A DNA stretch of 9,095 nucleotides from a virus (IMGVR_UViG_2534681655_000016), one strand, 5' to 3'. Positions 571 through 9,095 are shown, numbered from the stretch's first letter. Program-made: numbers and translations. Notes: generated by a model from the letters alone, not told the origin.

Positions 571-1417
571 AAGTACTCAACGAGCTAAGGCAGTTTTATC
601 CTCTTGATGAGCTTCTCAGGGCTGCGGAGATACCGCGCAGTACGTTTTATTATCATCTAAAGGCTCTCAGCAAGCCTGACAAGTATGCGGACGTTAAAAA
701 GCGTATTAGTGAGATTTATCACGAGAATAGAGGCCGATACGGATACCGTAGGGTAACGCTGTCTCTTCATCGAGAAGGGAAACAGATTAACCATAAAGCT
801 GTTCAGCGCCTGATGGGAACCCTCTCACTTAAAGCAGCGATTAAGGTCAAGCGATACCGCTCTTACAGAGGAGAGGTAGGGCAAACCGCCCCTAATGTTC
901 TCCAAAGAGATTTCAAGGCTACGCGGCCAAACGAGAAGTGGGTTACCGATGTTACTGAATTTGCAGTCAATGGGCGCAAGCTGTATTTGTCTCCAGTAAT
1001 AGATCTCTTCAACAACGAAGTTATTTCTTACAGCCTTTCGGAAAGACCAGTGATGAACATGGTTGAGAATATGCCGATCAGGCATTCAAAAAGCTTAATC
1101 CTCACGAGCATCCTGTTCTGCACTCTGACCAGGGATGGCAGTATCGTATGAGAAGATATCAAAATATCCTTAAAGAACATGGTATTAAACAAAGCATGTC
1201 CAGAAAAGGCAATTGTCTGGATAATGCTGTGGTGGAGTGTTTCTTTGGAACCTTAAAGTCGGAGTGTTTTTATCTTGATGAGTTCAGTAATATAAGCGAA
1301 CTGAAGGATGCTGTTACGGAATATATTGAATACTACAACAGCAGAAGAATTAGCCTGAAATTAAAAGGTCTGACTCCAATTGAATATCGGAATCAGACCT
1401 ATATGCCTCGTGTTTAA
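567..1417 (+). pseudogene. insK: IS150 transposase OrfB (InsK, DDE catalytic domain), disrupted by an apparent 1-bp deletion near 1074
   Basis: The ORF track splits the expected ~283-aa protein into 567..1151 and 1148..1417. The first piece ends ...[29 protein letters not shown], while the same DNA read one frame over gives ...[30 protein letters not shown], containing the conserved HSDQG motif. This is consistent with loss of one base between atgc and cgatcagg (1071..1080). It starts at GTG 567. Confidence 0.75.
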
Positions 1418-1443
1418 CTGTCCAACTTTTTGGGGTCAGTACA

Positions 1444-2385
1444 CTGGAAGGCTTTCATCCAGAAACAGTCAAAGTGGAAAACATGCAGCGGCAGATTGCG
1501 TTCCGCCATACCATCGATAAAGCTGTTTACCGTCGCTTCGTCGTAGTTGGTGGTAAATGAAGTGGTTAGCCACAGGCCGAAGGACCACGCGGGCGGCAGC
1601 GCCGGACGACCAGTAAAGCGGGTATAACGATCAAGTACCGCTTTCGGCGTCGGGCCGTCGATAACAAAGTATTCGAGATATTCACTCTCAACGCTGAACT
1701 GCACTTTGGAGACTTTCTCCGATCCCACTTCAAAAGAGACACACTGGGGATGATTGACCAGTACCCCATAACCACGGTTAGTCATGTAGAACGGGATATT
1801 TTTATACGCCTGTTCAGTACTTGTGCCGCCGTCCCGGTTCCAGGTCTCTACCGTCTGGCCATTGCGCACCAGGGCAGTAAAGCGCTCTCCCAGACCGTAA
1901 ACTGTTTCGCCAACGCCAAGATCAAGCCGCTCAAACATATAATTGCGTTGATTATTCGTGTCCTGCACGTAGCCATTATTTTTCACCTGACTACCGGTAA
2001 TACGTTCGCCGTTGCGCAGAAAATCCAGTGACCAGAACTCACCTTTGCTGACACGCGCGCTTAAGTTGCCACTTTTAAACTCAGCATAACGTTCTGTGTT
2101 TTCGATTGTGACCTTCACGTCCTGCAAAATATTGAGCGGGTAATGAGGACCGTTATTCAGCGCCCCCTGAAAATGCTCAATCCGCACACCGACAATACCT
2201 TCCTGTGGGGAGAAAAAGCGCAGCGTAAATAAAGGCGTGTCAAGCTGCCAGGTACGTTCACGTACATCACGGGGGGCAGCATAGACCACCATTTCATTAT
2301 CCTGCTGTTCAACCTCGAACACCTGAAGCGGGTGAATCAAATTGAGGCCAGGTTGAATCAACCAGTTTCCATCGCTAATTTTCAT
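1444..2385 (-). pseudogene. yicI: 5' fragment of alpha-xylosidase gene yicI (glycoside hydrolase family 31), truncated by the IS150 insertion
   Basis: The minus-strand ORF starts at ATG 2385 ([25 protein letters not shown]...) and matches the YicI N-terminus. After about 314 native codons the frame crosses the IS150 right end at 1443/1444 and terminates inside the IS (tail CTDPKKLDS*). Full-length YicI is about 772 aa, so the C-terminal part including the catalytic region is missing here. Confidence 0.85.
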
Positions 2386-2394
2386 TGCCGTTCC

Positions 2395-3777
2395 TTAGTT
2401 CTGCACTTCTTGAGAGGTGAATTGTTGCTGGCAACGGCGTTTACCCTGAGCCAGCTGTTCCATAACGGTTTTCAGATTGTGCGTCGTGAGTGAGTAGTAG
2501 CGTTTAGCGATAATCGCGCTCAGCAAATAACAGATCGCCGGAACAATCGTGAATAGCGCAATAATGATGCTAATCGTGGCGCTGTTCTGCGCTTTTTCTG
2601 CCGCATCATATCCGCCATAAGCCAGCATCCAGCCGATAAGAGCGCCGCCGAAGGCCAACCCCAGTTTGAGCACAAACAGCGTGCCAGCAAAACTGATCCC
2701 GGTCAGGCGTTTACCATTGCACCACTCGCCGTAGTCGACGGTATCGGACATCATTACCCACTGGATAGGTGTCACCAGTTGATGCAACACACCAATCACG
2801 AAGATGAAGACAAACATAGTGATGCTGGCCTGCATGGGAACAAAGAACATCGCGAGGCTAATCACTGCCAGCAGGGCGTTCGTCCACCAGAAGATAGTGA
2901 CTTTACATTTCCAGTCGGTCAGAGGTTTTGCCAGTGCGGAACCAATCAGGTTACCCACGCAATAAGTGGTGAGAAAAGCGACAAACACTTCCGGCGTGCC
3001 CAAAATCCATGTGACGTAATACATCATCGCCCCACCGCGTACGCACACCGCCAGGATATTGAAAATGGTTAGTAAACCGACAATCCGCCACTGGTCGTTT
3101 TGCCAGATATCACGTAAATCTTCCCGCATAGACGTTGTTGTAGGTGGTGCTTCAACGCGTTCTTTAGTGGTGAAGAAACAAAATGCCAGCATCATGAATG
3201 CCACCACGGAAAGGACCGCGATACCGCCCTGGAAACCGAGTGGTTTATTATCACCGCCAATTAAATTAACCAGTGGCATCATCAGAACAGTAGAAAGCAT
3301 GCCTCCCGCGGTCGCCAGCACAAAACGCCAGGATTGCAGCGAGATACGCTGAGTCGGGTCATTGGTGATTACACCACCCAATGCGCAGTAAGGGATATTG
3401 ACGACGGTATAAAGTAAGGTAAGTAGGGTGTAAGTAATTGCTGCATAGATCATTTTGCCGTTCATACTGAGATCTGGCGTGCTATAGGCCAGTACACAGA
3501 CGATCCCGAATGGCAGTGCGCCAAACAGTACCCACGGACGAAATTTACCCCAGCGAGAGCGCGTTCGATCGGCCAACAACCCCATGCAAGGATCGGAAAT
3601 CGCATCCAGTGCACGAGCGACCAAAAACATGGTTCCGACAAAACCGGCAGGAATGCCAAAAATATCGGTATAAAAGAACATCATATATAACATTACGTTA
3701 TCGAAAATAATGTGGCTGGCGGCGTCTCCCATGCCATAACCAATTTTCTCTTTAACGGACAACACTTCACTCTTCAT
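2395..3777 (-). CDS. yicJ: Sugar (glycoside-pentoside-hexuronide family):cation symporter, YicJ
   Basis: Long hydrophobic multi-TM ORF whose translation from MKSEVLSVKEKIGYGMGDAASHIIF... matches YicJ (460 aa). I chose ATG 3777, which has a GAGGAA ribosome-binding site 6-8 nt upstream, over the ORF-track start at 3834. Its stop lies 9 bp upstream of the yicI start, giving operon arrangement yicJ-yicI. Confidence 0.9.
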   Translation of the reverse strand: MKSEVLSVKEKIGYGMGDAASHIIFDNVMLYMMFFYTDIFGIPAGFVGTMFLVARALDAISDPCMGLLADRTRSRWGKFRPWVLFGALPFGIVCVLAYSTPDLSMNGKMIYAAITYTLLTLLYTVVNIPYCALGGVITNDPTQRISLQSWRFVLATAGGMLSTVLMMPLVNLIGGDNKPLGFQGGIAVLSVVAFMMLAFCFFTTKERVEAPPTTTSMREDLRDIWQNDQWRIVGLLTIFNILAVCVRGGAMMYYVTWILGTPEVFVAFLTTYCVGNLIGSALAKPLTDWKCKVTIFWWTNALLAVISLAMFFVPMQASITMFVFIFVIGVLHQLVTPIQWVMMSDTVDYGEWCNGKRLTGISFAGTLFVLKLGLAFGGALIGWMLAYGGYDAAEKAQNSATISIIIALFTIVPAICYLLSAIIAKRYYSLTTHNLKTVMEQLAQGKRRCQQQFTSQEVQN

Positions 3778-4032
3778 CTGCTTTTCCTCGATGCTATAGG
3801 GGTGCTGAGACCGATAACGCATTTTGTAAACCATCCCTGTGAGAGCGAATATTCCGATATCTGGTTATTAATTTATGATTCTTGTTTTATGTGATCGTGG
3901 TAGCGTTAATTCCGCTCATATATCATTGTAAAATATGGGTTTTATATGAACTATAATGCTTTCGTGATAATACGCTGCGTGTATTAGGCGGAAAAAACTG
4001 ATCTGGGGGATGTAGAAACTCAAGGAAGTAGC

Positions 4033-4038
4033 TATAAT
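4033..4038 (+). promoter_or_regulatory. Putative -10 element (TATAAT) of the selC promoter
   Basis: Perfect TATAAT hexamer about 32 nt upstream of the mature tRNA 5' end. No strong -35 element is evident, so this is tentative. Confidence 0.35.
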
Positions 4039-4069
4039 GCGCCCCGCCTCCATGTAGCAATCGAGGCGC

Positions 4070-4164
4070 GGAAGATCGTCGTCTCCGGTGAGGCGGCTGG
4101 ACTTCAAATCCAGTTGGGGCCGCCAGCGGTCCCGGGCAGGTTCGACTCCTGTGATCTTCCGCCA
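4070..4164 (+). tRNA. selC: tRNA-Sec (selenocysteine tRNA, anticodon UCA), 95 nt, ending in CCA
   Basis: GGAAGATCGTCGTCTCCGGTGAGGCGGCTGGACTTCAAATCCAGTTGGGGCCGCCAGCGGTCCCGGGCAGGTTCGACTCCTGTGATCTTCCGCCA matches recalled E. coli selC. It has the long extra arm typical of tRNA-Sec and the anticodon TCA at 4104..4106. Confidence 0.92.
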
Positions 4165-4326
4165 AACCTCATCCAGCCAGTTCCGAGACACTCCATAAAA
4201 TCATTTATATTCAATGCGATGAATAATCAGCTTGTCCGTAATAGTCCGAGATCATCTCCCTGAATCCGCGAAAAATATGTATAGTAATGTGTATAGATTT
4301 TTTATACGTAGTTTTCAGTTATACAC

Positions 4327-5505
4327 ATGGCCCTAACCGATATACAGATCAAACGTGCAAAACCACAAGACAAACCATACACATTAAACGATGGGCAAGG
4401 TCTGTCATTGCTTATCAATCCCGATGGCTCGAAAGGCTGGCGTTTCCGTTTCCGGTTTGCAGGGAAAGCGCGGTTAATGTCATTTGGCAGCTACGATTTA
4501 GTAAGCCTCGCAGAAGCACGTGAGAAACGCGATACGGCTCGTAAGCAGGTAGCAAACGGCATTGATCCAGTAGCAGAGCGTAAGGCTCAGAAAATTGCTC
4601 AGAAATTATCAACTGAAAACTCTTTTGAGGCCGTTAGCAGAGAATGGCATGCAGCAAAAGCAGATCGCTGGACTTTAGCTTATCGCGAAGAAATTATTAA
4701 AACATTTGAACAGGATGTTTTTCCTTTCATTGGTAAACGGCCAATAGCTGAAATTAAACCCCTAGAACTGCTTGAAGTTCTTAAACGCATAGAAAAACGT
4801 GGAGCGTTGGAGAAAACCAGAAAAGTACGTCAACGATGCGGAGAGGTGTTTCGCTACGCGATCATCACTGGCCGCGCTGAATACAATCCAGCACCTGATT
4901 TAGCTATCGCATTAGCTGTACCGAAGCAAAAACATCATCCTTTTCTATCAGCAGAAGAACTCCCTCATTTTGTCAGAGATCTTGAGGCTTACACAGGTAG
5001 CATAATCACTAAAAATGCAACTAAAATTGTGATGCTTACTGGAGTCAGGACACAGGAAATGCGTTTTGCCACTTGGGACGAAATTGATTTACAAAAAAAG
5101 GTATGGGAAATACCGGCCGAACGAATGAAAATGCGCCGACCACATCTTGTACCACTCTCCACTCAAGTAGTTGAAATTTTTCAACAACTCAAGCTAATCA
5201 CCAAAAACTATCCATATATTTTTATCGGCCGTAATAATCACACTAAGCCAATTTCTAAAGAAAGTGTATCCCAAGTAATAGAATTACTTGGCTATAAAGG
5301 AAGAGCTACGGGCCACGGATTCCGCCATACAATGTCTACTATTTTGCATGAGTACGGATTTAACAGCGAATGGATAGAGTTACAATTGGCTCATGTTGAT
5401 AAGAATAGTATTCGAGGCACTTATAATCATGCCCAATATTTAGAAAAGAGAAGTTCTATGATGCAGTGGTACAGTGATTATATCCTTAATAGAGATAAAG
5501 CATAG
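4327..5505 (+). CDS. int: P4-type tyrosine recombinase/integrase (site-specific integrase of the selC-inserted satellite)
   Basis: 392-aa ORF starting 163 bp after the selC 3' end. The N-terminus (MALTDIQIKRAKPQDKPYTLNDGQGLSLLINPDGSKGWRFRFRF...) is the arm-binding region typical of P4-like integrases. The C-terminus carries catalytic-type residues in GHGFRHT, LAHV and RGTYNH (R...H..R..Y). Confidence 0.9.
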   Translation: MALTDIQIKRAKPQDKPYTLNDGQGLSLLINPDGSKGWRFRFRFAGKARLMSFGSYDLVSLAEAREKRDTARKQVANGIDPVAERKAQKIAQKLSTENSFEAVSREWHAAKADRWTLAYREEIIKTFEQDVFPFIGKRPIAEIKPLELLEVLKRIEKRGALEKTRKVRQRCGEVFRYAIITGRAEYNPAPDLAIALAVPKQKHHPFLSAEELPHFVRDLEAYTGSIITKNATKIVMLTGVRTQEMRFATWDEIDLQKKVWEIPAERMKMRRPHLVPLSTQVVEIFQQLKLITKNYPYIFIGRNNHTKPISKESVSQVIELLGYKGRATGHGFRHTMSTILHEYGFNSEWIELQLAHVDKNSIRGTYNHAQYLEKRSSMMQWYSDYILNRDKA

Positions 5506-5560
5506 AATAATAGAAGTTAATGCTGTATACTGTAAATTAACAATATAGTAAGGATTGAAA

Positions 5561-6427
5561 ATGAAGAAGACAGTACTTATAACTGATTTAGATAACACAC
5601 TATTCGACTGGTTTAGCGTTTGGTATCATAGCTTTAATGCAATGCTAAATAAAGTCGTTGAGATTTCCGGTTTTTCTAAAGACGAGCTTATTGCACAGAT
5701 AAAACCGATTCATCAAAAATATGGTACTGCCGAATACTCTTTTATTCTAGAAAGCATACCTCTTTTACAAGAAAAATATGGTGATAGAAACTCCATCAAT
5801 TTAGTTATGGATGATGCTATACACGCTTTCAGAAGTGAGAGAAAGAAATATCTTTCTCTGTACCCAACAGTAATGGACACTTTGAGTGTATTAAAAAGTA
5901 AAGGGTGTTATATTGTCGCGTATACTGAATCCAAAGCTTATTACTCCAATTTCCGCTTAACAAGATTAGGATTAGATGGTGTGATTGATGTCCTTTTCTC
6001 TCCTGAAGATCATGAAATCCCTGATGGTGAGAAAAAACAAGATAAATATAATCTAATGCTGACAAAGCAAGAATATACACCTATTGATGAAATTAAACCA
6101 AACCCACAACTTCTTCTGGACATAATAAAATCAATTGGTGCCACACCAGAAGAGTGTGTATATATAGGTGACAGTGAAATGAAAGATATAGAAATGGCCC
6201 AAAAAGCAAACGTATCAGATGTTTTTGCAAGCTATGGAACGAATCATTTTGAAGAGAACAAGGAGGGATATGAATTACTCCGTGCGGTAACCCACTGGAC
6301 TGATGCTGATGTTGAAAGGGAAAGAAAAATTAAAGAAAATGCCTTCGGAGCAAAACCCACATATGTAGCCAAACAATTTTCAGATATTTTGTCTTTTTTT
6401 GAATTTACCAAATTTAAAGGAAAATAG
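5561..6427 (+). CDS. HAD-superfamily (haloacid dehalogenase-like) hydrolase/phosphatase, cargo gene 1 of the satellite hotspot
   Basis: All four HAD motifs are present in order: motif I LITDLDNTLFDW (DxDxT), motif II IVAYTES, motif III conserved Lys in IKPNP, motif IV GDSEMKD (GDxxxD). There is a cap-like insertion between motifs I and II. An AAGGA ribosome-binding site lies 8 nt before ATG 5561; the ORF track's TTG at 5555 is less likely. The gene is very AT-rich compared with the flanks. Confidence 0.8.
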   Translation: MKKTVLITDLDNTLFDWFSVWYHSFNAMLNKVVEISGFSKDELIAQIKPIHQKYGTAEYSFILESIPLLQEKYGDRNSINLVMDDAIHAFRSERKKYLSLYPTVMDTLSVLKSKGCYIVAYTESKAYYSNFRLTRLGLDGVIDVLFSPEDHEIPDGEKKQDKYNLMLTKQEYTPIDEIKPNPQLLLDIIKSIGATPEECVYIGDSEMKDIEMAQKANVSDVFASYGTNHFEENKEGYELLRAVTHWTDADVERERKIKENAFGAKPTYVAKQFSDILSFFEFTKFKGK

Positions 6428-6428
6428 A

Positions 6429-7061
6429 ATGAACAATCTAGAATTAAAGAAACATGATGACGCTATAAAATTAGAAAATCTCAAGTTGAAAATTGATATC
6501 TGGAAGACAGTTGTTGACGTTCAGAAACATTTTAATGATCTTGAGATGAAGGTTAGAAACTTCGGAATTTTGATCTTGTCTGCATTTATTGGTGCAATTG
6601 GTGTAAGCTTTAATTCCGGCGCTGAATTTATAGCCTTTGGCAATCATTACTCTGTTGCTGCCATTCTTGCTTTCGGGGCATCTGTTGTTTGGTTGTTATT
6701 TTATTTTGTTGACGTTTACTGGTATCACCCATTACTTCTTGGAGCTGTAAAGAAAGGTTCAGAACTCGAAAAAGAAATTGCATCCGACATCCCAGGAATT
6801 AATCTTACAGAAACCATAGGAAAAAGTAGCCCAAAAGATATTTTGCTCTGGAAAAATATGCATAGTACTGGAAAAGCTAACCTTTTCTACTTTGGGGTTT
6901 TAGCTGTTCTGTTAACTATTTTTATTTCTCTACTGTGCTTTAAATCCCCGCAAAAGACAAATCAACTAAATGAATTAAATATTAAAGCAAATTGCACTAG
7001 AAACAGTAATTACAATGGAGTTAATTGCATTATCGCATCACAGCCAAGTGACAACAAATAG
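6429..7061 (+). CDS. Small membrane protein with a charged, coiled-coil-like N-terminal domain and three predicted transmembrane helices, cargo gene 2
   Basis: ATG 6429 lies 1 nt after the HAD stop (TAG 6425..6427), with an AAGGA ribosome-binding site inside the upstream gene's 3' end, suggesting translational coupling. The protein has three hydrophobic segments: FGILILSAFIGAIGVSF, YSVAAILAFGASVVWLLFYFVDVYWY and FYFGVLAVLLTIFISLLCF. The N-terminal ~45 aa are Lys/Glu-rich. No enzymatic motif was recognised. Confidence 0.75.
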   Translation: MNNLELKKHDDAIKLENLKLKIDIWKTVVDVQKHFNDLEMKVRNFGILILSAFIGAIGVSFNSGAEFIAFGNHYSVAAILAFGASVVWLLFYFVDVYWYHPLLLGAVKKGSELEKEIASDIPGINLTETIGKSSPKDILLWKNMHSTGKANLFYFGVLAVLLTIFISLLCFKSPQKTNQLNELNIKANCTRNSNYNGVNCIIASQPSDNK

Positions 7062-7151
7062 TGCACTTTATCACTCTTTACCCCAACTGCATGTACTTAC
7101 CTTGTGAGCACAGAGACGCGCTATAAATAAACACTTTACTGCTGGCGGGCG

Positions 7152-7170
7152 GTGCTTTCCCCGCCTCGCC
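7152..7170 (-). other. cos: P2/P4-type cos site (19-nt cohesive-end sequence GGCGAGGCGGGGAAAGCAC) with flanking 7-bp inverted repeats
   Basis: The plus strand reads GTGCTTTCCCCGCCTCGCC, the exact reverse complement of the recalled P2/P4 cohesive end. It is flanked by inverted repeats GCGGGCG (7145..7151) and CGCCCGC (7171..7177). Its position downstream of psu matches the P4 genome map. Confidence 0.7.
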
Positions 7171-7271
7171 CGCCCGCTTTGCGGGGCGGTTTTAATGCAG
7201 TTGCACTGACACGCTCAGGCCGCGCCGGGAATGGCGCGGTCTGCAGAAAATGAGGCAGGAAAACGCATGCA

Positions 7272-7306
7272 AAGCCATGCACCTTATCGATGCATGGCTT
7301 TTTTCA
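7272..7306 (+). terminator. Rho-independent terminator-like hairpin (10-bp perfect stem AAGCCATGCA/TGCATGGCTT, 9-nt loop, then a T-run)
   Basis: Perfect inverted repeat at 7272..7281 and 7291..7300, followed by TTTT (6 T's counting the stem end). It lies between the convergent cargo operon and psu. The plus-strand orientation is canonical; the minus strand has a weaker U-tract. Confidence 0.5.
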
Positions 7307-7334
7307 GTAAAAACGGGCGGATTTTCGGGGAATT

Positions 7335-7907
7335 TTACACAGACTGACGTGATGCCAGTTGCGCACTTTTACGCGAAAAAATCATGTTCTGCGCAGGGGT
7401 GAATTTTTCACGGCTGTCATCCACCGAAGCCGCGTCAGGCCTGAATCCGATGGTCGTTAAAATGTCGCTATCCTGTGCGGAATAATTAATTTTTTCCCCC
7501 TTCGCAAGCCAGGACAGAAGGGCTTCACGCAGGGCATCTGTGGCACGCTGTATGGCACAGTTTCGGGCAATGGCCGTCAGCTCACTGTAGCCCATCAGCT
7601 CCGGTGCCAGTGCCGCCGCCAGTGCTGTGCCGTGCTGCTGCATAAAATCATTCAGCCGGTCGCGGATGCTGATGTGCTGAACGGCTTCATGCGAACGAAT
7701 ATAACGACCGGCAGCCTGATTCACCTGCCATTTTCTGACTTCGATAATATTGCGTAATTCGTCCAGGCGACTGACGTTTCTGCCTTCCCCGGACAGAAGC
7801 CGCAGATATTCCTGTTCGGCCGCAGCCAGCTCATTTTTGCGTTGCAGCCATGCTGCTTTGTTATTCTGACAGGTGTCAAAGGCCTGCTGTAAGGCTGTGC
7901 TTTCCAT
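7335..7907 (-). CDS. psu: P4 Psu (polarity suppression / capsid decoration protein)
   Basis: 190-aa ORF whose length and sequence (MESTALQQAFDTCQNNKAAWLQRKNELAAAEQEYLRLL...) match recalled phage P4 Psu. It is the last gene of the sid-delta-psu late operon. Confidence 0.88.
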   Translation of the reverse strand: MESTALQQAFDTCQNNKAAWLQRKNELAAAEQEYLRLLSGEGRNVSRLDELRNIIEVRKWQVNQAAGRYIRSHEAVQHISIRDRLNDFMQQHGTALAAALAPELMGYSELTAIARNCAIQRATDALREALLSWLAKGEKINYSAQDSDILTTIGFRPDAASVDDSREKFTPAQNMIFSRKSAQLASRQSV

Positions 7908-7980
7908 CGTTATCTCTTTCTCATCATGCTGAAGAATAAAAATACGGTGTGCGGCGACGGCCGGGGTTAACCGGCAGCCC

Positions 7981-8481
7981 TCATTCCAGACGCAGCGAAT
8001 ATGATTGTGTTTTTAACCGTACTGGCGGCAGTTCCTGTTTTTCATGCAGGCGTTCTGCCAGTTCGTCCGGTGTGACCGGGCGGACAATGAAGCGGTTGAT
8101 GGTCTGAAGCGTTTTAAACACCAGACCACAGCCCGGATCCGTGCACACATAAAAACGTTCGGTGACTTCCTGAGACAGACGCCGCGATGTTCTTGACAGT
8201 GCAAGGCCTTTACATCTCCGACAACAATATCCGGTAACAAGCATTCTTTTCGGGCGTTTCATACTGCCGGAGGCAGAAGTCAGTGAATCGCGGTATCTCT
8301 GTTTGCCTGAAATGTATTCCATTCCTGAATCTTTACAGTCAGAGAAAAAGCTTTCACTCGCTTCAAATGTCGCAGAGCAATAAATATTCCGGCACTGTGC
8401 AATCATTATCTTGGTGCCATCGTCCATGAAATGTGCGCGGCGGGTGTGAGCAACATGTCCACACGACGGGCAGTAAATCAT
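7981..8481 (-). CDS. delta: P4 Delta (Ogr-like tandem zinc-finger late-gene transcriptional activator)
   Basis: 166-aa ORF with two Cys-rich Ogr-like repeats (CPSCGHVAHTRR...C...C and C..C......CTDPGCG). Its size matches P4 delta. The ATG overlaps the sid stop in an ATGA arrangement at 8478..8481. Confidence 0.88.
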   Translation of the reverse strand: MIYCPSCGHVAHTRRAHFMDDGTKIMIAQCRNIYCSATFEASESFFSDCKDSGMEYISGKQRYRDSLTSASGSMKRPKRMLVTGYCCRRCKGLALSRTSRRLSQEVTERFYVCTDPGCGLVFKTLQTINRFIVRPVTPDELAERLHEKQELPPVRLKTQSYSLRLE

Positions 8482-9095
8482 GACAGCAGTCCTCTGGCCT
8501 TAAGCTCTGCACCCTGCTGGTCTATTTTGTCCTGCCACACCTTGCGCTGTGCCGGTGTGCCTGCCACCTCATAATCCATGTGCGGGAGTGTTGCCGCTGA
8601 CAGTCCGGTCAGCCGGAGAACCGGCTCGCCGGTGAGGCTGATTTGCATCTGTTTTATTTTCTGTTCCAGCGATGATTTCACCTGCTGCATGACAGCTTTA
8701 TCGGGTGCGACGTAGCCCTGATGCCCGGTGGTGTTGGCGAGCGGATTTTCCTGTACCAGAATGCTCAGATGCATTGCCCGGACAAGCGCCTCACAGGTTT
8801 CATTCAGGGCGTGTTCCAGCTCATGCTCTGCATACAGACTCAGAGGTGATGATGTGCCTTCCGGTAGGCGGTGGCCGTGCTGTCACACGCCCCTTTCAGG
8901 CGTTCACGTTCGAAATTCAGCACCACGGCCAGATTGTCATATTCCTGTACCAGCTCCCGGCGTGCCACGCGCTCAATGTGGCGCTGTTTCAGCTCGTCGC
9001 TCAGGACACCACCGGCTGCACGAAAGGCCGTGCGCCAGTCGTCAGCGTCGTTTCCGTCGGCCTGCGCCAGCGCATTTTTTTCCTGCTCTGCCCGT
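8478..9095 (-). pseudogene. sid: P4 Sid (capsid size-determination external scaffold), apparently frameshifted; the 5' end lies beyond the window
   Basis: The C-terminal part is in the frame ending at TGA 8478..8480 and is open back to a stop at 8883..8885. The N-terminal part (RAEQEKNALAQADGNDADDWRTAFRAAGGVLSDELKQRHIERVARRELVQEYDNLAVVLNFERERLKGACDSTATAYRKAHHHL*) is in a different frame, running from the window edge to a TGA at 8840..8842. The two frames overlap at 8843..8882 and their combined length fits the ~244-aa Sid, implying a 1-bp indel there. Confidence 0.7.

Follow-up and report, generated by a model that had tools for sequence, protein, structure and literature searches.

Satellites of the P4 type carry between int and psu a variable interval that serves as a hotspot for defence genes; 5,251 such loci, in over 300 gene arrangements, are described from Escherichia coli, with retrons among the occupants (Rousset et al. 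2022, PMC9122126). The subject of this work is a stretch of 9,095 nucleotides (IMGVR_UViG_2534681655_000016, analysed at full length and called the window below), which very probably contains the left two-thirds of such a satellite, site-specifically recombined into the 3′ end of the selenocysteine tRNA (tRNA-Sec) gene selC and carrying a type II Metis system, misB and misC, in its hotspot. The map of satellite P4 reads cos-gop-beta-cII-int-attP-crr-alpha ... sid-delta-psu-cos. Integrated P4 therefore has the order attL-int-cII/beta/gop-cos-psu-delta-sid, which is exactly the order of the window, except that the slot holding gop, beta and cII in P4 holds misB and misC here. The attachment site of P4 itself is leuX, whereas that of the element in the window is selC. 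Another P4-like element located in the selenocysteyl-tRNA gene is retronphage phiR73 (Sun, Inouye and Inouye 1991; Inouye et al. 1991). As described, phiR73 resembles the window in being P4-like, in occupying selC and in having a non-P4 defence cargo in its hotspot; its cargo is retron Ec73, in contrast to MisB-MisC in the window.

Metis is known from a recent study of two types of the system (Osterman et al. 2025, bioRxiv 10.1101/2025.11.05.686725). In type I, MisA is an NAD+ diphosphatase switched on by N6-methyl-dAMP (m6dAMP), a nucleotide whose accumulation requires degradation of the Dam-methylated host chromosome by a phage. Autoimmunity is averted by MisB, a HAD phosphatase that removes the phosphate from basal m6dAMP. 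In type II, misB is paired with misC, whose product has three membrane helices. The MisB-MisC pair of Phyllobacterium sp. UNC302MFCol5.2 requires host Dam, is escaped by denA mutants of T6 and becomes toxic upon addition of m6dAMP; for its MisC, a cytoplasmic pocket that binds m6dAMP and assembly into octameric rings are predicted, and a pocket mutant was studied. A catalytic mutant of MisB still defends. Temperate phages that do not damage the host genome are not affected by Metis.

The window corresponds to the whole of contig APXH01000137.1 from E. coli 2862600 (assembly GCA_000356465.2). The contig was found through an exact-sequence match of the 210-residue cargo protein and is identical to the window base for base; the window stops at position 9095 because the contig stops there. 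Our analysis concerns the identity and order of the genes, cos, the core of the attachment site and the identity of the cargo with a published construct. Nothing in the locus is new to the literature: publications already cover the satellite family, the use of selC for attachment, the hotspot and the exact cargo.

The backbone to the right of the cargo is nearly that of P4 (coordinates of all features are given in Table 1). The DNA between 7171 and 9095 is 98.5% identical to nucleotides 9699–11624 of P4 (NC_001609), with 189 of 190 residues identical in Psu and 163 of 166 in Delta. The 19-nucleotide P2/P4 cohesive end GGCGAGGCGGGGAAAGCAC, equivalent to nucleotides 1–19 of P4, is matched at all 19 positions, while no match was obtained in 200 shuffles. 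On the cargo side of cos, the similarity to P4 fades within about 15 nucleotides; therefore, the variable slot is bounded by the int stop codon and cos. A preliminary description of the window had named psu, delta, sid and cos, and all four passed the homology tests (Pfam, alignment with P4 and the cos match). It had also proposed the order int - cargo - cos - psu - delta - sid after tRNA-Sec, and these features are all present in that order. Together with the P4 homology, the gene order supports its more general claim of a P4-like satellite at selC in which other genes replace the gop/beta/cII interval. The identification of sid was correct too, but the gene is incomplete: its first 39 codons lie beyond the contig end and the reading frame is broken near position 8843. 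Apart from this shift, located at HHHL|LSLY, both frame segments match P4 Sid with one substitution (E162D).

The selC gene is the only tRNA gene detected by ARAGORN in the window, and int starts 162 nucleotides past it. Placing the start of the element right after tRNA-Sec, as had been done previously, was thus accurate in that int adjoins selC, but not at the level of the attachment core, the 23-bp sequence GACTCCTGTGATCTTCCGCCAAA, which overlaps the last 21 nucleotides of the tRNA gene. The window holds the left copy of this core only (attL), and the right copy (attR) is outside. Both copies are seen in near-identical elements of complete genomes. In E. coli MS 16-3 (locus L002), the left half of the element is 99.4% identical to the window over its full length and attR is 10,490 bp downstream of attL; in E6 (locus L001), the left half is 99.1% identical over the 88% covered and the distance is 10,188 bp. 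These complete elements are therefore 10.2–10.5 kb long, compared to 11.6 kb for P4, with the 23-bp repeat of the selC 3′ end at both edges. Past sid, both contain a vis/alpA-like helix-turn-helix gene, an Icd-like/cI region, epsilon, orf151, orf106 (DUF5375) and the alpha primase-helicase gene, followed by attR; alpha, cI/epsilon and attR had been expected in this direction. K-12 has an empty site, with yicT' and setC following selC. A comparison with such an empty site, which had been suggested in the preliminary description, showed that the DNA past attR in E6 is identical to the K-12 DNA past selC, and clean insertion is therefore proven.

The reduced coverage of several matches, 88%, arises from Delta, which in those elements has a single zinc finger. 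Delta is a 166-residue tandem double finger in the window and in P4, and a single 81-residue finger in otherwise 99% identical elements (E6, positions 15759–16004 of L001, and LR-25).

The integrase has the architecture of the P4 type, as had been presumed, yet it is only 38% identical to P4 Int over the full length (E = 2e-96). Its amino acid identity to the integrase of an unrelated selC island in strain 510016 is 71%. A search of 5,426 complete E. coli genomes with the segment that runs from the first base past selC to the end of int gave matches over at least 80% of the segment in 470 of them, all chromosomal; the related int genes have about 80% nucleotide identity or more. In nearly all among the matches listed, the alignment begins at query base 1, that is, at the first base past selC. 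From these comparisons, the integrase appears to have selC specificity, in agreement with the earlier proposal. Other P4-like satellites borne by selC have an integrase gene that is 82–87% identical in DNA sequence to int of the window and directly follows selC, for example in O157:H7 FRIK2069 and LR-25. These two elements share the scaffold of the window and differ in hotspot cargo: FRIK2069 has a dCTP deaminase (anti-phage) between int and psu-delta-sid, and LR-25 has a DEAD-box helicase and a hypothetical protein.

Short repeats on both arms of the attachment site are candidates for the arm-type sites of the selC-type integrase. Three of the four copies of TGTATAR in the whole window are clustered between selC and int. 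The right arm of the MS 16-3 element (L002, 22394–22412) contains two copies of TGTATAA, likewise with a 12-nucleotide period. Both sets of repeats resemble the annotated tandem 12-nucleotide repeats in the attP arms of P4.

The cargo is a homologue of type II Metis (MisB-MisC). According to the Metis authors, homologues of MisC and MisB are encoded by the operon of E. coli 2862600, which had earlier been shown to defend against T7 (Osterman et al. 2025). At the E6 locus, which is 99.9% identical, RefSeq names the two proteins misB (WP_000754434.1) and misC; the misB DNA of the window is identical to that of E6 and MS 16-3, which encodes WP_000754434.1. The features of the proteins also fit. 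MisB contains the catalytic HAD motif I, DLDNT, at residues 9–13, which provides the DxD signature, as well as GDSEMKD. A hydropathy scan of MisC shows three hydrophobic helices at about residues 42–65, 73–98 and 148–175. The two genes have one orientation, misB before misC, with misC starting one nucleotide past the misB stop codon. As in the type II system of Phyllobacterium, the locus is thus an operon of two genes, one for a HAD phosphatase and the other for a membrane effector with three helices. MisC was matched by no model in Pfam or NCBIfam. The NCBIfam search gave only sub-threshold generic HAD matches for MisB and none for MisC, Psu or the Sid fragment, and is neutral with respect to the Metis assignment. 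The cargo has a G+C content of 33–36%, compared to 49–57% in the flanking backbone, and is thus a low-GC cassette. It was found in 8 of the 5,426 complete genomes, always with at least 99.8% identity.

The preliminary description regarded this cargo as novel, which it is not. Table S2A of Rousset et al. 2022 (PMC9122126) lists a construct, pFR97, as 'Hydrolase + 3TM' at locus P4 of E. coli 2862600 (NZ_APXH01000137), synthesised from the very contig analysed here. The 399 nucleotides of its insert that are shown correspond to window positions 5411–5809 without a mismatch. The two listed proteins are identical to MisB and MisC of the window, the second being annotated '3 TMs'. Thus, the two do not differ, and the window is the natural context of the construct, whose insert starts at 5411. 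pFR97 specifically inhibits phage T7, and only T7 in the panel used (PMC9122126); defence against T7 has therefore been demonstrated by others on exactly this sequence. The system is also represented in PADLOC. The same table lists 'Phosphoesterase + HAD' (pFR96), which is type I Metis-like, with the first protein truncated there.

Table 1. Features of the selC-borne P4-like element in the window (positions counted from the first nucleotide; aa, amino acids).
Feature	Position	Strand	Evidence
selC, tRNA-Sec gene (anticodon TCA), integration target	4070–4164	+	ARAGORN; sequence identical to K-12 selC
attL core GACTCCTGTGATCTTCCGCCAAA, last 21 nucleotides of selC plus 2 nucleotides	4144–4166	+	Recurs as attR in near-identical elements
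Candidate arm-type integrase-binding repeats, TGTATAG at 4278 and 4290 (12-nucleotide period) with an inverted copy at 4319	4278–4325		Inference from sequence
int, tyrosine integrase of P4/DUF4102 type, 392 aa	4327–5505	+	Pfam Arm-DNA-bind_3, Phage_int_M and Phage_integrase
misB, HAD-family phosphatase, 288 aa	5561–6427	+	Pfam HAD_2 and Hydrolase; PADLOC 'Hydrolase', E = 6.2e-198, full length
misC, membrane effector, 210 aa	6429–7061	+	PADLOC 'Hydrolase-TM', E = 7.4e-140, full profile
cos, cohesive-end sequence GGCGAGGCGGGGAAAGCAC, right edge of the variable hotspot	7152–7170	-	19/19 match
GC-rich hairpin	7170–7189		Terminator scan
P4-homologous, cos-proximal non-coding region	7171–7334		Within the 98.5% P4 match
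psu, polarity suppression/capsid decoration protein	7335–7907	-	Pfam Psu, E = 1.3e-88
delta, late-gene transactivator, tandem Ogr/Delta zinc finger	7981–8481	-	Pfam Ogr_Delta, two matched stretches
sid, capsid size-determination scaffold, codons 40–244 only (3′ 205 codons)	8478–9095 (continues past 9095)	-	P4 Sid match

By analogy with P4, Int would integrate and excise the element; its integration at selC regenerates the tRNA. When a P2-like helper infects the cell or is induced, Delta would activate the helper late genes, Sid would scaffold a small capsid, Psu would decorate the capsid and block Rho, and the helper terminase would cut cos. The m6dAMP trigger, the Dam dependence and the pore formation that we propose for the cargo are carried over from the Phyllobacterium orthologue. 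On that model, MisB would clear basal m6dAMP in the uninfected cell. Once the Dam-methylated chromosome of the host is being degraded by a lytic phage such as T7, MisC may bind m6dAMP, oligomerize and damage the membrane, and the infection would be aborted. Since Metis spares temperate phages under which the host genome stays intact, the cargo of the window should not restrict the P2-like helper of the satellite.

Several observations weigh against interpreting the region as a P4-like satellite with a type II Metis cargo. The right half, with alpha, epsilon and attR, is outside the window, and contigs from sister strains reach ypjA rather than an attR of the selC type. The sid frame is broken in the window assembly by a one-nucleotide deletion near 8843, so that HHHLLSLY becomes HHHL-stop. 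The m6dAMP mechanism was established with the Phyllobacterium system and not with that of E. coli 2862600, and the latter is reported as active only against T7, whereas the mechanistic work concerned the former (Osterman et al. 2025). The phages also differ: the window system acted on T7 only, and Metis of type II from Phyllobacterium on T6; for type I, activity covered T2, T4, T5, T6 and T7. The deletion and the right junction of the sister contigs would also be expected of a decayed, immobile P4-like remnant that is kept as a defence island, in which Sid is inactive, the half for replication and derepression has been lost or rearranged, and int and misBC alone are of importance. That the contig ends within sid, and that relatives have pseudogenized P4-like genes such as the frameshifted Icd-like gene of LR-25, agrees with decay as well. 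However, the sid deletion is unique to the window assembly, being absent from P4, from MS 16-3 and from all four sister-strain contigs examined; the latter have the extra base, and two of them encode a full 244-residue Sid while the other two end inside the gene. A second private one-nucleotide deletion is located near 1074 in orfB of another multicopy element, IS150, where it splits the gene into open reading frames of 194 (567–1151) and 89 residues (1148–1417). It is absent from both sister contigs that cover the site (L005 and L007) and probably reflects a mistaken consensus, the element being multicopy. Position 8843 itself is A in some relatives and C in others. Such a pattern typically accompanies consensus errors where repeats have been collapsed, and it suggests that a base was mis-called and that the gene is no true pseudogene. 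From 1075 to 7517 the window is identical to L007, the differences cluster in the psu-delta-sid backbone, and other sister contigs break at the boundary of cos and psu. For the frameshift, we favor an artefact over true inactivation of sid. As for the right end, a second copy of the selC core was sought in the two sister contigs that extend past sid, and none was found: L005 (13430–16002) and L006 (13180–15750) have alpha and the crr repeats of the selC element and then pass straight into ypjA. In complete genomes, a P4-like satellite at ssrA has this ypjA junction as its right end. The ssrA/CP4-57 and selC elements of K-12 are co-oriented and about 1.06 Mb apart; therefore, a real join would delete about 1 Mb. 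A genuine selC-ypjA rearrangement was rejected for this reason in favor of a chimeric assembly over the repeated P4 backbone. L005 and L006 are likely chimeras with an ssrA-borne satellite, and the lineage probably carries two P4-like satellites. As the complete genomes with a 99.4% identical left half contain full elements with attR, we consider a decayed remnant unlikely.

The cargo could alternatively be mainly a toxin-antidote addiction module that stabilizes the satellite, in which MisC is toxic, MisB blocks its activation and phage defence is a side effect. The MisB of Metis is dispensable for defence, yet prevents effector toxicity (10.1101/2025.11.05.686725), and gop and beta of P4, at the same position, behave like a toxin-antitoxin pair (PMC9122126). 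An addiction module is nevertheless highly improbable here, given that the cloned operon has a phage-specific phenotype, against T7, and that activation of the homologous system needs a phage-induced metabolite and phage denA; moreover, roles in defence and in addiction are not mutually exclusive. Even less credible, to the point of being negligible, is the notion that the HAD hydrolase and the membrane protein serve ordinary metabolism or transport and are mere passengers without a role in defence. Their annotations would allow it, with the generic 'HAD family hydrolase / phosphoglycolate phosphatase' for one and no family model in Pfam or NCBIfam for the other. However, the phosphoglycolate phosphatase models match far below their cut-offs, the other occupants of the hotspot are defence systems, and published plaque assays on the same sequence, which validated it as anti-T7, contradict a passive role. 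Finally, a satellite with a type II Metis cargo might depart from our description in one of two ways, though we regard such a departure as quite unlikely. The E. coli MisB-MisC pair might not be a plain copy of the Phyllobacterium system, with activity on T7 only reflecting another trigger threshold or ligand, and it might be tuned to kill upon infection by genome-degrading lytic phages without ever responding to the P2-like helper; or the sid frameshift might be real, and a Sid-less satellite would survive mainly as a defence island.

Outside the element, the window contains a copy of IS150 at positions 1–1441, inserted in yicI, of which a 323-residue fragment is encoded at 1414–2385. Most E. 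coli genomes match the window from 1442 on only. Strain 510016 has the same IS150/yicI junction, but its selC island is another one. As expected of an assembly break induced by a repeat, the contig starts at the end of IS150. At the other side of the complete element in MS 16-3 (L002, 22461–23719), attR is followed by a gene of the RhuM family and, 1.2 kb on, by a third, partial selC core (CGACTCCTGTGATC ... CGCCAAAATGCCTCT), which suggests the remnant of a second, tandem selC island. E6 has only a rhuM pseudogene fragment in place of this gene. A scan of 4100–7400 for sigma-70 promoters and terminators was uninformative, with fewer promoter-like sites than in shuffled sequences and none 5′ of misB on the plus strand.

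As a discovery, the locus carries little weight, since the type of element, the integration site, the concept of the hotspot and the exact cargo, cloned from the same contig, were already in print. It is of use as a calibration case: a reader with only the sequence at hand recognized both a P4-like satellite and its swapped hotspot, but the lack of a recognizable homologue did not equal novelty. For the biology of these elements, the locus illustrates the fit between a defence system that senses degradation of the host genome and a satellite that relies on a temperate helper.

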